Origin: Podarcis gaigeae | Lineage: Eukaryota | Length of the DNA: 64,000 nucleotides | Assembly (NCBI GenBank): GCA_964106915.2 | Contig: OZ066925.1 | Reading direction: 5' to 3' (one strand) | Shown: positions 24,632 through 49,389 of the stretch, in pieces | Numbering within the stretch: the stretch's first letter is position 1 | Layout of the letters: the number at the start of each line of letters is the position of its first letter | The notes under the pieces: generated by a model | What the model was told of the DNA's origin: nothing | The model's database searches: none | Seen by the model: the letters and a program-made list of their open reading frames with translations, nothing else | Program-made: the position numbers and the translations under genes

Positions 24632-26930
24632 TATGTGTTGTGTGAACTGGTACATCCTTTTCATTTAAACTGATTTTCCCACCATTCAGCTTCACTGGAT
24701 GATTCTAGATTCTAATATTACGAGACATTGAGAAAAACTTATCTTCTCCTCACCAGGTATATCTTTATACACTTCCATGTCTCACTCCTTAATGTTTTCC
24801 CCCAAAACATAACATCTGAGCTGTTACTCTCAGCCCCAACCCAACTTGCAAAATGGAGATAGTATCTTACACAGGTGTTATAGATGAGAGAACGGAAATA
24901 AAGTACTTTGAACAATCCAGAAGGACCATATATTGTGGGAAAGTATTTAGGAATGTTGCAAATAAAAGGTATATATATTCAGACAAAGCCAGCCATGGCC
25001 ATGAAGAACTCTGTGGCAAACCACAATTGACCTAGCCATTGTTACATCATATGCTCCTAGATTTGGTTGGGGAGGTAGGTTCATCTGGAAATTGATTGCT
25101 CTTTGCCTTTAAGGCCAAGGCAGCCAGAACCTGAGTAGACATCAGGCAGTTCTTAGGACAGCCCAGTCCTACTGACACAGTAAACAACTTTATTCAAACA
25201 TGTACTAAATCCACCTTGAGGACCTAAGACATAGAAAGCTGAGACATAAATAGCTGAAATAAGCAAGTGCTATAATCAGTCCAAAGTAAGCTGTATCATT
25301 TAAATGTAACAACCAGTAGCCATTTTAGATTAATGAAGTGATTTGCATAGATCTCTTTATTTGCAAACTTCAAGAACACAACAGAGAGCAGAAGCAAAAC
25401 TATACAGTGTAATACTGACAGACCACTAAATAGTTCAGGACACTTTTATATGAAATTAATAGATTTATTTGTATTAGCTCAGATGACGTTTCTGTATTTG
25501 CCTAGACTAGACATGACAGCTCCTGTGCAAAAAACAAACATACAAACAAAAAAACGCTGCTCCATTTGAGCAGATTTCCTGACTCAAGTTCAGATTTCTA
25601 GCGGCAAATATTCATGTTTAAGTCTGCTCATCTTGGAATTCAAATACTGCAACTGTCAAATGAGAGGGCAGTGCAGTGATTACATTTAGAGATTAAAAAT
25701 GGCACATACCTCAGGTATACCTACATTGGCGCACAAAGATAATACACCTTTATACTGTTAAGGGGGGAGGGGGAAAAGAAAAGGTAGTTGATCAATGTAT
25801 AGTTTAATAAGAGCCAAAGGCAGTGGAATCAAAAAGTAAGTCCTTTAAAAAAAATTATACCATTTTAAAAAGGTGTACACTACTCCATTAAGACAGCAGC
25901 AGTACTTAATCTGGTGTTACAACTAAGTAAAAATCACATTGCTGGAAATCAGTTTATCATAGTCTGTCCTCCTTAAGACTGGAGACAGGAAAAATATTAC
26001 ACAGGATTAGCAGGAAGACATGGTACCTATCTTTGAAAGGCATGAAATCAACACCATCTTCATGGACGAGATTTGATATAGAAATAATTTCAACTGTCCA
26101 TTTGTGGGAAAGGTTTAAGGGTTAACTTTCCCTGGCAATTCTGATCGGTAAACATTTGCAAGTCAAACAGGAACCTACTGCTGAGAAATCTCTATTATCC
26201 GGCATCTATTATCTCGCCTACCCAGTGATGGTTAATGTAGAGCAGTTCAAGTTATTCTTTATGTGTTAAAAGATTATAGTATAATCAGAACCACTCAATA
26301 ATAAATCAAAGGCTTTCCTTCAGAACCTGAAAACACTGGGGTGACGATTTTAACCAAAATAATGAAAAATGAAAAGATACCTGGAATAGCATTATATCCC
26401 ACGCACCTTTTGTTTTCTACGAGTCATGCATACTGCAGACGAAATGGTTTGTGCTAAACAGCCTCAAATCTATTTTTCTAATATTAAGCACAAAGGAACA
26501 ACACTGACAGCAAGCATGGTAAATAAATATCTCCCTTGAGAACAAGAGCAGCAGTCAGGAGCGCTGACATGCATGCTAGAGAAACCTCACACACCATTTT
26601 TTCCCTACCTGCACAAGTTGCCATTTGCTGCAGCCGTCAAAATCCCTCTTCCCCCTCTTCCCTGGTTGATTTCAAAAGGAAGGTTTTCAGGCAGTCTCTC
26701 AAGGCATCTACTAATATGCTTTACAAGTATAATATTCCAATTAAGCGTATCTTTAAGAGAAAATCCATTTTCTTCCTTGCTCAGGTAAACATGTTTACAG
26801 CTCCTGCCCGGAGACTGGGTGGTTCAGACTCCCATGTCACACACATGTCGTCAGCAACAAGAAAAGCCCCCTTTCTCTATCATTAACATTTTAAATAAGG
26901 TAAGGAGAGAGGAGCACTTTGCAAACTTAC

Positions 26931-26975: not shown

Positions 26976-29170
26976 CTAAAACAGGAAATTAGCATTACAA
27001 TATCCCGTATATATCCTGATACTTGCTATAAATAAACCCACCCCATACAGAGCAGGGAGCTACTAGTTCAGAACCACCCGATCAACTAGTTAGTCGATTA
27101 GAAGGCCAATGTTTATGTGCGTGTTTCACGTTAAGTATCAGAAGTCGTAGCGCCCTCTCACCCGGGGAAACCATAATTCCTTCTCGGAGATATAAAAAAA
27201 AAAAATCCTGTCCAAAACGTCATGATCTCGGACCAACCACTAGAACCCTTCCAATCCATAACCGTATACAGGAAATGCCAAACGAAAGCTTTAAAAAAAA
27301 CTGCCAAGAAAGGTTACAAAACCTCCCGTTTTACATCCTAAAAAGTCATCAGTTTTCCCGTTATTATTATTTTTTAATAGAATACGTAAGAAGAAAAATC
27401 CAACAACATAAGTTTTGAGTATTTATTCCCCCACTTTTCAACGCAGGTTTCAACTCATTTCAAAGTAATACGTATGCATAAAGGGGGGGGGGGTGAGAGA
27501 GAGAGACAGCCCTTAAATCTGAAAAGTAAGCGTCATTCCTTATATAGGCTGTAGCAGTTGTTCCTAGCCAGCGAAGAAAGGCGGGGAGGGGGCGCAGCGG
27601 ACAAACCGTTACCACCCATTATTATGATTATGATACAAACAGGTACCTCGAAATCCAAGAAGAGGGCGAGAAAGAGAAACTTGGCTGATTCACGTCCCCT
27701 CCCCAACCCACACAGAAAGAAAGCCTTCCTTTTGCTCGCTCTCTCTCCCCCCGCACCCCAATCACGTTGATAAAGGAGGGGAGAAGGGGGGAAAAAACAC
27801 CCACCCAACCTCACAGAAACACTTCCAACACTTCTGCCAAGATCTGGAGGTTGGCGGGGGTGTGGGAGGAGAAACAATATGTTCAATGGCTACGGAGATA
27901 AATCAACATGCACTGCAGGCACTAAAAGAGGCGGAGGCGAAAGTAGCGGGGGGGGGAGAAGAGGGGGGAGCAATACATAGAAGGCAGAGGAGGAGGGGCA
28001 GAGAAAAGGAGGGGGTCCCTTTCCAGGGCAATCTCAGGGGTGCGCATGTGGTGCGTTTCCCTTGTAAAAAAATGGGGAAAAAAGAAAATCAATACACACT
28101 GCAGCAAGCAACAGTACTTCCCCTCGCCTCCCGCTTTCCCCCCGCTTCTTCCCCAGCCGGGGCCAAAACACGCCACACGCCAGCGAACGAAGTCCCCATT
28201 ACAGTCATCCTGCCCTCGACGTTTTTGTTGCGTGTCTGGCAAGCAGGTAGTTCGGGAGTTACACGCAGTTTCCTCTGGATCTCTCCCCCCCCCCCACTCC
28301 AAACTATGAGCCTTAGCGCACCATCCACCCCCCACCATCCCAAAACAACAACAACAAACTATGGGGGGATCGCGAAGACTGGAGGTGGGAGGCTGCGGGG
28401 GGGAAAAGCGCCGCGCTTCCCTCGGGGGCTTTCCCCAGCGCGAGGGGAGGAGAGAGAGGAGGGGAAGTGACCCCCTCTCCCTCCGCAATAGCAAAGCCCC
28501 CCCCGAAACAAAAAGTTTGGGGAGCGGGGTCGGAGGGGGCGCCCCTTCTCCTCGGAGGCCGGCGAGACCCGCCTCAGCTCAGGTAATAAGTTTCCAAGTT
28601 GAGGTGAGGGGGGGACCGTTATAAGGTCGAAGGCGCGGCCTTCCTCTCTCTCTCCCCCCCCCCCCAAGAGAAGGGACCGGAGTGACTAGGAAAATAAGAA
28701 AGAAAGACACCCCCCGGCTCCGCTTCGCCCTCTCGCTCCTGAGGGAAAGAAGCCGGGGACGGGCGGCGGCCGGGCAAAATGAAGGGTGGGACACGGGGGA
28801 AGAGAAAGAGGAGGCAGCGGGCGGCGTGTAACGGTCCCCGGGCAGGGCTGATCCTCGCCGGCGAAGGAGGCTCGAGTGGAGGAGGCACCGCTAGGCGGAG
28901 AAGGAGGCAGCCCGGCGGCGGCGGGGAGGGAGAGCGCGAGGCGGGGAGGGAGGCAGGCAGGCAGGTAGCGGATCTAACGGTGCAGGGCGAGCCGGGCTCC
29001 CGGCGAGGAGCGCCCGGGAAATTACTTTCTACTTCTCGGATCTGCTTCTGTCTGTCTTCTTTCTTCTTCTTCCTCCCCCCCCCCCCGTTTTACTCCGCCC
29101 GACCCCCGGCCCGGTCCCCCCTGAGCGTCCCCGGCGCGGCGCGGGCCGTTGCCCGGCGGAGCTGACTGAC

Positions 29171-29228
29171 CGTTATTGCGCCTCGGGTTCGCCTGCTTCC
29201 TGCGCTTACACCTGGGGCCATCCGCCAT
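29171..29228 (-). CDS. ZEB1: ZEB1 (zinc finger E-box-binding homeobox 1) first coding exon, 58 nt, phase-1 donor
   Basis: Translates [19 protein letters not shown]+G, the ZEB1 N-terminus (ZEB2 has [24 protein letters not shown]). It is followed by the donor GTCAGT at 29170-29165. The 5' context GCATTTAGACACAAGCGAGAGGATC-ATGG has good Kozak (G at +4, A at -3). It lies in a CpG island. The ORF-track extension to 29022 is intron read-through. Confidence 0.96.
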
Positions 29229-29319
29229 GATCCTCTCGCTTGTGTCTAAATGCTCCAGTCACCTCCTCCCCCCTCCCTTCCCCCCTCCCCCTCGCCGCTC
29301 TCCCCCCCCCCACCCCCGC

Positions 29320-29535
29320 CCGGACCTGGTTTACGACACTGGGTGGTTGGGTGTATGTGTGTGTCTGTGTATGTGTGTGCGCGCGTGTGTGTATATGTCC
29401 TTTTCTTTTTTTTTTACTTTTTTACATCACCTTCCTACACCTAGTGCTCGGCCGCCGGAACCTTGTTGCCAGGGGAGACGGCCGCTTTACGGCAGCACGT
29501 TTGAACCGGCAGGAGGGAAAAGTTTCTTCTTCGCC
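29320..29535 (+). ncRNA. Possible 5' region of a divergent antisense lncRNA (ZEB1-AS1-like) / conserved promoter block
   Basis: Motifs TTTACGACACT, ACATCACCTTCCTACACCTAG, CCGGAACCTTGTTGCCAGGG and GAGGGAAAAGTTT occur in the order I recall for the human ZEB1 promoter/ZEB1-AS1. Transcription cannot be shown from sequence. Confidence 0.4.
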
Positions 29536-30419
29536 CCGCTTGGGCGCGACGCAGGTACCCGTGTGTGGCGCACGGGGCGCGGAGGGGGCGTCAGAAGGAG
29601 GGCCGGGGAATGGGAGGAGGAGGATTTGGGGTTAGAGAGAGAGGGAAAGTGCCTCTGGATGTGGGGTGTCTAAGGGGAGGGCCCAGAGGACGACACGGAT
29701 AGAGAGCGAGAGCGGTGCCCTCCGGCGCAATGGAGCCGGGCGAGCGCGCGTGAGCCGCTAGTGCTGGAGCCGGGCGAGGAGGCGCCGCTAGCCGCGCTGT
29801 TATTATTATTATTATCATCCTCATTATCACGGATTGCAATTTGTTGTCGCTTTATATCAGTACAGCACAAGCACACGCGCATCCGTATCAGCCCAAAGCG
29901 AACTAAAGGGAAAGCAACGAAAAGGCTTGCAGAGAGATAGAGAGGTGAAGTGTGGATTTGTTGTTTACACGTTTCATTCCTACGGTGTTTTTGTGCGCGT
30001 GAAGTTTTCGCGTGTGTGTAAGTTGTTGTGTCCTGGTTTTACCGGTAGAGCTTGGTAAAGCATCTTAAGTTCAGGAGTGTGGGATCATGCAGCTCGTTCA
30101 TGTGTACACTTGCTGGTGGTTTGCTGAATTGTGGGGACACGCACGGCCGGCTTTACTGTCGACACACGCCTTCCCAGGGATTCTGTTTGAACTGTTAGCT
30201 CGCTTAATGCAGATTATTTACTTATTTATTTAGAGTTTTAGACAATTCATCCTGCCCGCCCCTTCTGGGGGGAAAAGTGACAACAAGGCGATTTACAACA
30301 AAGTGAGAAGTAAGATGAAAAGAATACAGAAGGTTATAAAATAATGCAATCTTTAAAATTCACAACTCATAAAAATGCACGGAATGGCCATTTATTAAGA
30401 GCCGCAGTAGCAGCCGATT

Positions 30420-31246: not shown

Positions 31247-31469
31247 CAGGCATACCTCTGGTTGAATGTGCTTTGGGTTGAGCGAGTTTGAGTTGCGCTC
31301 CGCGGCAACCTGGAAGTAATGGAGTGCGTTACTTCCGGGTTTCGCCACTCGCGCAAGCGCAGACACTACAAATGACGTCACGCGCAGACGCGGCGTTGCT
31401 TGTTATGTTCGCTTCAGGATGCAAACGGGGCTCCGGAACGGATCCCATTCGCATCCTGAGGTACCACTG
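31247..31469. mobile_element. pogo/Tigger-like MITE, CpG-retaining
   Basis: TA-CAGGCATACCTCTGGTTG ... CATCCTGAGGTACCACTG-TA. Confidence 0.8.
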
Positions 31470-49245: not shown

Positions 49246-49389
49246 NNNNNNNNNNNNNNNNNNNNNNNNNNNNNNNNNNNNNNNNNNNNNNNNNNNNNNN
49301 NNNNNNNNNNNNNNNNNNNNNNNNNNNNNNNNNNNNNNNNNNNNNNNNNNNNNNNNNNNNNNNNNNNNNNNNNNNNNNNNNNNNNNNNN
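49246..49389. other. Assembly gap (144 N)
   Basis: Run of N. Confidence 1.

Follow-up and report, generated by a model that had tools for sequence, protein, structure and literature searches.

A candidate OVOL-bound silencer in intron 1 of ZEB1 in Podarcis gaigeae: an ordered block of short words with counterparts in mammals

Intron 1 of ZEB1 in the lizard Podarcis gaigeae contains a compact block in which the words CCGTTA, CAGGTA, CCGCTA and CCGTTA follow each other in a fixed order, and this block is likely to be a silencer that is bound by OVOL1/2 and keeps ZEB1 off in epithelial cells. The DNA analysed, termed the window in the following, is a stretch of 64,000 nt of contig OZ066925.1. 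In the proposed mechanism, OVOL1/2 would bind the two CCGTTA sites of the block (sites A and B) as well as its CCGCTA part in epithelial cells and, once bound, would repress the adjacent ZEB1 promoter, and loss of site A alone would raise ZEB1, as in the mouse Twirler mutation. Binding of OVOL proteins to the block in this species is presumed by analogy with human and mouse cells, for which OVOL2 occupancy and repression at ZEB1 intron 1 are published; the same publications bear out the statement of the initial annotation of this DNA that OVOL2 represses ZEB1 in mammals. Since OVOL2 repression of ZEB1 via intron 1 is already established in mammals, the presence of such sites in another vertebrate is expected. 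The footprint described below narrows the element to four short words whose order is fixed, with the Twirler base inside, and the other three words constitute specific targets for mutagenesis and candidate places in which non-coding variants of human ZEB1 may fall.

The ZEB1 locus and its CpG island

The locus comprises a predicted coding exon and a CpG island, located in the window as follows:

29171..29228, minus strand: predicted ZEB1 coding exon 1, 58 nt (19 residues plus the first base of the next codon)
27000..30200 (edges approximate), no strand: CpG island with the ZEB1 promoter, exon 1 and proximal intron 1

We take the peptide encoded by exon 1 to be that of ZEB1, a name that is supported by the match to the mouse Twirler probe, and the 58-nt length of the exon agrees with the c.58 numbering of the mouse gene. 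The GT that directly follows the exon, at 29170-29169, is the predicted donor, and the words of interest lie in intron 1 behind this exon, which is the placement of the Twirler/OVOL2 element. The CpG observed/expected ratio is 0.67-0.93 across 27001-30000, and the island (27000-30200) contains six CCGTTA, five CCGCTA and five CAGGTA. Between 26900 and 64000 no Rfam family reached its gathering score, and of nine candidate exons with an open frame to the left of position 26800, none resembled ZEB1 exon 2. Among the matches listed, 20 of the 24 sequencing runs contain the stretch or part of it, and no RNA run containing it appears among them.

Elsewhere in the window, an assembly gap of 144 N occupies 49246-49389, and a small CpG-rich patch at 31325-31465 contains ACTTCCGG and TGACGTCA, presumably ETS- and CRE-like, together with a short inverted repeat.

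Enrichment of OVOL words in the island

The initial annotation had counted six CCGTTA/TAACGG sites, five of them in the longer form ACCGTTA, and had regarded other copies as merely scattered. These counts were reproduced: the six sites lie at 27358+, 27606+, 28616+, 28829-, 28975- and 29170+, ACCGTTA is found at five of the six, and six further CCGTTA occur in the rest of the window, which gives 12 in total. The accompanying expectation from uniform base composition ignored the location of the sites inside a CpG island.

For the whole 64-kb window, 12 CCGTTA versus 8.05 expected is unremarkable (11/100 shuffles). Within the island alone, six CCGTTA were found versus 1.39 expected (12/3,000 shuffles) and five ACCGTTA versus 0.25 expected (0/3,000), the latter value remaining at 0/3,000 under trinucleotide and tetranucleotide shuffles and also with the donor site left out. 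ACCGTTA ranks first among the 4,200 four-letter 7-mers of the island and survives correction for all words, given that any 7-mer as extreme arose in 6/300 dinucleotide and 0/300 trinucleotide shuffles. The hexamer CCGTTA fails this correction (288/300 dinucleotide, 174/300 trinucleotide shuffles), and its count is defensible solely as a prior hypothesis. Scaling by CpG share versus the remaining window yielded P = 0.026 for CCGTTA and P = 0.002 for ACCGTTA, and neither CCGTTA nor CCGCTA occurs in five further kilobases of the window that are rich in CpG.

OVOL2 is reported to bind CCGTTA or CCGCTA (PMC10682436), and both words together occur 11 times in the island versus 2.8 expected (1/1,500 shuffles). 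In addition, four of the six CCGTTA sites have a CAGGTA or CAGGTG box within 40 nt (P = 0.0017), which is a lead only, the cut-off being post hoc. Three further CCGCTA are located at 29755-29760, 29785-29790 and 27944-27949, the first two of them 30 nt apart and upstream of exon 1. The CCGCTA sites, the CAGGTA beside site A and the Twirler mutation are points that were absent from the initial annotation.

A footprint shared with two further ZEB1 loci

The exact 26-nt exon 1 DNA pattern served as the locus query, the 19-residue peptide being too short for a protein-based locus search. It retrieved two loci, L001 and L002, in metagenome contigs, with 0 matches in genome contigs and 0 in viral contigs. 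Both have the same start context as the window, and their exon, likewise 58 nt long, shows 8 (L001) and 4 (L002) differences from that of the window. They are 97% identical over 189 nt around exon 1 and are therefore not independent, and the intron of L002 is covered over 300 nt only. Judging by their compact, CA-repeat-rich sequence of lower GC content, both are probably from fish.

The introns of L001 and L002 are alignable with the window in short blocks only. Because MAFFT misaligned the expanded window intron beyond site A, k-mer footprinting was used instead; gapped global identities of 0.65-0.71 come without a null and are not counted as evidence. The proximal elements of the window are the following:

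28975..28981, minus strand: core site A, ACCGTTA; counterparts at c.58+161 (L001) and c.58+176 (L002)
28966..28971, minus strand: extra CCGCTA (second OVOL2 word), overlapping CAGGTA; in the window only, as compared with L001 and L002
28962..28967, plus strand: CAGGTA adjoining site A; a ZEB Z-box, or an antisense-transcript donor as in mouse Zeb1os
28887..28900, plus strand: 14-nt block identical in L001 and L002, containing CCGCTA (28888-28893) and all seven shared 8-mers
28829..28835, minus strand: core site B, ACCGTTA; order and strand unchanged in L001 and L002

In gene sense, the ordered block reads CCGTTA, TACCTG, TAGCGG, CCGTTA, with order and orientations the same in all three sequences, at these intron positions:

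Window: 191/204/278/337
L001: 159/165/190/222
L002: 174/180/207/229

The distance from site A to site B amounts to 146 nt in the window, 63 nt in L001 and 55 nt in L002. Nine of the 24 7-mers common to the proximal intron 1 of L001 and L002 recur in the window (3,000 shuffles gave 1.2 on average and 8 at most), as do seven of the 18 common 8-mers (shuffle maximum 5), and every one of these window-shared words is either ACCGTTA or part of the 14-nt CCGCTA block. An ordered-pattern test (0/20,000) is circular, the pattern having been taken from the same sequences. Moreover, the L001 intron is enriched by itself, with three ACCGTTA versus 0.17 expected (4/3,000 shuffles). Regarding conservation of the individual sites, those at 28975 and 28829 are retained in both loci; the donor site is retained in neither, and L001 shows no counterpart of the three distal sites.

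It was also considered that the cluster is an effect of CpG-island composition noticed post hoc. The failure of the hexamer under family-wise correction and the ordinary window-wide count are in line with such an effect, which is the probable explanation of the donor site and a possible one of the site at 27358. As an account of the whole cluster it is highly improbable, however, in view of the survival of ACCGTTA under the same correction, the conservation of the core in L001 and L002, the separate enrichment of the L001 intron and the lack of either OVOL word in the five other kilobases rich in CpG.

Two more blocks of the window are shared with L001, namely 26602-26627 (24/26 identical) and 26781-26793 (13/13), with counterparts at 269-294 and 431-443 of L001. 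Each holds CAGGTA or its complement, and together they may represent a second conserved element of intron 1 with Z-boxes or donors of alternative exons. Furthermore, CACCT follows site B within about 6 nt in L001 (1738-1765) and L002 (58-85), resembling site A with its TACCT, and is missing at site B of the window; given the CACCT in L001 and L002, sites A and B may go back to an old duplication.

Counterparts of sites A and B in human and mouse

In intron 1 of human ZEB1, CCGTTA occurs at +375 and +440, 65 nt apart, with FLAG-OVOL2 ChIP signal (PMC5928881), and OVOL2 was mapped to +320/325 by Roca et al. 2013 (PMC3790720). The ChIP primers were not found in the supplements of the latter study, and the ChIP amplicons are without single-site resolution. 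Of the ChIP primers of PMC5928881, 2F agrees with the flanks of site A in 10 of 14 bases and with those of the other 11 CCGTTA sites of the window in at most 7; a 10/14 flank match occurs at 6 of 6,412 island positions. The resemblance of the flanks to the primer and to the mouse probe is of moderate strength. Primer 1R reached 16/20 by chance in a purine-rich stretch, and the matches of four other primers were not meaningful. The forward primer of the 'non-binding' control in PMC5928881 starts with TAACGG, which is the OVOL core in reverse complement. Site A is likely the counterpart of the OVOL2-bound human +320/+375 site, and site B likely that of the +440 site.

The mouse Twirler mutation c.58+181G>A alters the G of an ACCGTTA that is followed by TACCTG (Kurima et al. 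2011, PMC3183090), and a knock-in of this base reproduces the phenotype. Among the 12 CCGTTA sites of the window, site A gives the highest score with the Twirler probe (31, versus 26 for the next), and the best match of the probe in the island is 28961-28992. In addition, CCGTTA with TACCTG following within 12 nt is found once each in the window, L001, L002 and the mouse probe. Hence, the G of site A (window 28978, c.58+193) is likely orthologous to the Twirler base. In L001 and L002 the probe aligns best to site B rather than A, and the orthology of A and B in these loci therefore rests on their order and on the adjacent CAGGTA. Taken together, the region of sites A and B is, by sequence comparison, likely the orthologue of a known mammalian ZEB1 silencer.

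The CAGGTA beside site A

ZEB1 recognises CAGGTA Z-boxes (PMC3979034), and a CAGGTA adjoins site A in all four sequences compared, the spacer being 7 nt long in the window, 0 nt in L001 and L002 and 5 nt in the mouse probe. The intron holds four copies versus 0.67 expected (10/3,000 shuffles). If conserved as a Z-box, the copy beside site A would add ZEB1 self-regulation to the OVOL2-ZEB1 circuit; within the available sections of the literature searched, self-regulation at this word was not found described.

The same word could, on the other hand, be kept for a Zeb1os-like antisense transcript, in which case CAGGTA would be the donor of its exon 1 and the flanking conservation would reflect RNA processing. 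In mouse, exon 1 of Zeb1os has its donor at this CAGGTA, at a distance of 12 nt from the Twirler base (PMC3183090), and all five island CAGGTA (27640, 28244, 28580, 28962 and 29552) lie on the plus, i.e. antisense, strand. Nevertheless, the G at donor position +5 that is present in the mouse Zeb1os copy is absent from the five copies of the window and from the proximal copies of L001 and L002, the spacer that separates CAGGTA from site A is of variable length (0 to 7 nt), splicing is unaltered by Twirler (PMC3183090), and site B and the CCGCTA block would be left unexplained. We therefore regard the antisense transcript as a very unlikely reason for the conservation of the block.

The donor site and the distal sites

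The remaining CCGTTA sites of the island comprise one at the exon boundary and three in the distal part:

29169..29175, plus strand: ACCGTTA over the predicted exon 1 donor (GT at 29170-29169); not CCGTTA in L001 or L002
28615..28621, plus strand: distal ACCGTTA, CAGGTA 36 nt off (28580); no positional counterpart in L001
27605..27611, plus strand: distal ACCGTTA, CAGGTA 34 nt off (27640); no positional counterpart in L001
27358..27363, plus strand: distal CCGTTA running into a TTA microsatellite, the weakest site; no positional counterpart in L001

The site at 29170 spans the Asn codons and the donor, as the initial annotation had stated and as the sequence confirms for the predicted donor. 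Its spelling requires AAT, AAC before G|GT, which amounts to 1 in 4 at equal use of the Asn codons. L002 retains Asn-Asn with the other first Asn codon, so that the opposite strand reads CCGTTG, whereas the two residues are Ser-Ser in L001; with CCGTTA kept in 0 of the 2 loci, the motif is not retained beyond the needs of coding and donor. The human +115 site, which was judged unbound by OVOL2 on an indirect argument (PMC3790720), precedes the bound site by about 205 nt, and the donor site of the window precedes site A by 195 nt; by position, +115 is probably its counterpart. The designation of this site as 'triple-coded' is thus unsupported, because the motif is lost in L001 and L002 and human +115 was judged unbound, and the donor site is likely a by-product of coding and splicing.

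Comparison of the distal sites involves L001 only, the intron of which reaches the blocks matching window 26602-26627 and 26781-26793. The result fits a turnover of distal OVOL sites around a fixed core, in which the three distal sites of the window would be lineage-specific additions to the same silencer. L001 has distal CCGTTA of its own at 418 and 567, and CAGGTA at 432 and 643. Of the homotypic six-site array that had been proposed, the enrichment in intron 1 holds, and positional counterparts are restricted to 28975 and 28829, which leaves the array as a single unit unsupported.

The array of six, including a triple-coded donor site, had further been interpreted as a lizard specialisation with a role in wound epidermis and tail regeneration. 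Sites may have been gained in this lineage to some extent, as the distal three are without counterpart in L001 and the CCGCTA at 28966 is confined to the window. The core, however, is common to distant vertebrates, L001 possesses two distal CCGTTA as well, the donor site is not conserved, and zeb1 and ovol go unmentioned in the lizard-regeneration literature among the matches listed, which leaves this specialisation barely credible.

OVOL, MYB and the Twirler allele

The conserved sites may alternatively be read mainly by the MYB family (c-Myb, A-Myb and B-Myb), OVOL binding being secondary. That MYB recognises the CCGTTA core, as the initial annotation had noted, agrees with what we take to be the MYB consensus, by which CCGTTA, CCGCTA and other hexamers were judged here. 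CCGCTA, which is enriched and conserved, falls outside this consensus, and CCGTTG, CAGTTA and CAGTTG total 2 versus 4.0 expected in the island, i.e. they are not enriched; word enrichment therefore favours OVOL rather than MYB as the factor that may have shaped the element. In support of MYB, recombinant c-Myb shifts the wild-type probe of the mouse orthologue in vitro and not the Twirler probe (PMC3183090), ZEB1 in breast lines rises upon MYB knockdown and falls when MYB is overexpressed (PMC3979034), and the blood phenotype of Twirler would fit a haematopoietic factor. The attribution of Twirler to Myb was based on the in vitro shift alone, and 'Ovo' occurs 0 times in the Twirler paper (PMC3183090), so OVOL and MYB were not compared there. 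MYB as the main reader appears unlikely; the two readings are not exclusive and are compatible across tissues.

The preferred reading, an OVOL-bound silencer, can be extended to the Twirler allele itself: Twirler would be the loss of an OVOL site within a silencer shared from fish (probably) to mammals and composed of a ZEB Z-box with three OVOL words around it. That this is both true and unpublished is a tentative proposition, to which we give less than an even chance. If it holds, OVOL and ZEB1 would meet within a few dozen bases of ZEB1's own intron, and Twirler would constitute an in vivo cis-test of the OVOL-ZEB1 toggle rather than a MYB allele. The proposition is supported by the motif grammar and by the likeness of Tw/+ mice to Ovol2 C120Y mice. 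Tw/+ mice show obesity, a small spleen and lymphopenia appearing after birth, while Ovol2 C120Y, a hypomorphic protein with 128-fold weaker motif binding (PMC10682436), leads to about 30% weight gain, a hypoplastic spleen and lymphopenia. However, since Zeb1-null alleles likewise give obesity and thymus defects, this overlap is not specific. Zeb1 protein is 2- to 3-fold up in Twirler knock-ins, the rise being non-significant in the original Tw line, and the companion paper terms the mechanism 'still unknown' (PMC3183091).

Two observations on the ear count against Twirler as an OVOL-site allele. Epithelial markers appear in CD326-negative cells of Tw ears, which in the authors' reading resembles MET (PMC3183091), and Zeb1 staining in well-preserved Tw/Tw ears is mesenchymal and at wild-type levels. 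The same profile after sorting could also arise if ectopic ZEB1 made epithelial cells lose CD326, and the authors themselves name the limitation of CD326 sorting (PMC3183091). A link between the Twirler site and OVOL was not found in the available sections of the literature searched, key OVOL papers lying outside it, nor did that literature yield anything relevant on mutated ZEB1 intron 1 sites. A vertebrate alignment is published (Kurima Fig. 3B, PMC3183090), and the published probes permit a direct comparison of OVOL2 versus MYB at the Twirler base.

Comparison with known systems

Within the mutual repression circuit of OVOL2 and ZEB1 (Hong et al. 2015, PMC4640575; reviewed in PMC13664146), the block of the window corresponds to the expected cis-element of the OVOL-to-ZEB1 arm. 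In contrast to the full circuit, this arm is the only one represented, the OVOL2 promoter being outside the window. As in the OVOL2-bound intron 1 of human ZEB1, two proximal CCGTTA are present and the primer flank fits site A, whereas the distance between both sites is 146 nt in the window and 65 nt in human. The three distal sites of the window have no described equivalent for human ZEB1 in the available sections of the two human studies (PMC5928881, PMC3790720). The block also resembles the mouse Twirler site, as both feature an ACCGTTA about 180-195 nt into intron 1 past a 58-nt exon with TACCTG close after it. Yet the spacer to TACCTG measures 7 nt in the window and 5 nt in mouse, and that of the window holds the extra CCGCTA. 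While the mouse site was described as one Myb site, its counterpart in the window opens a block of four parts, three of which are OVOL words.
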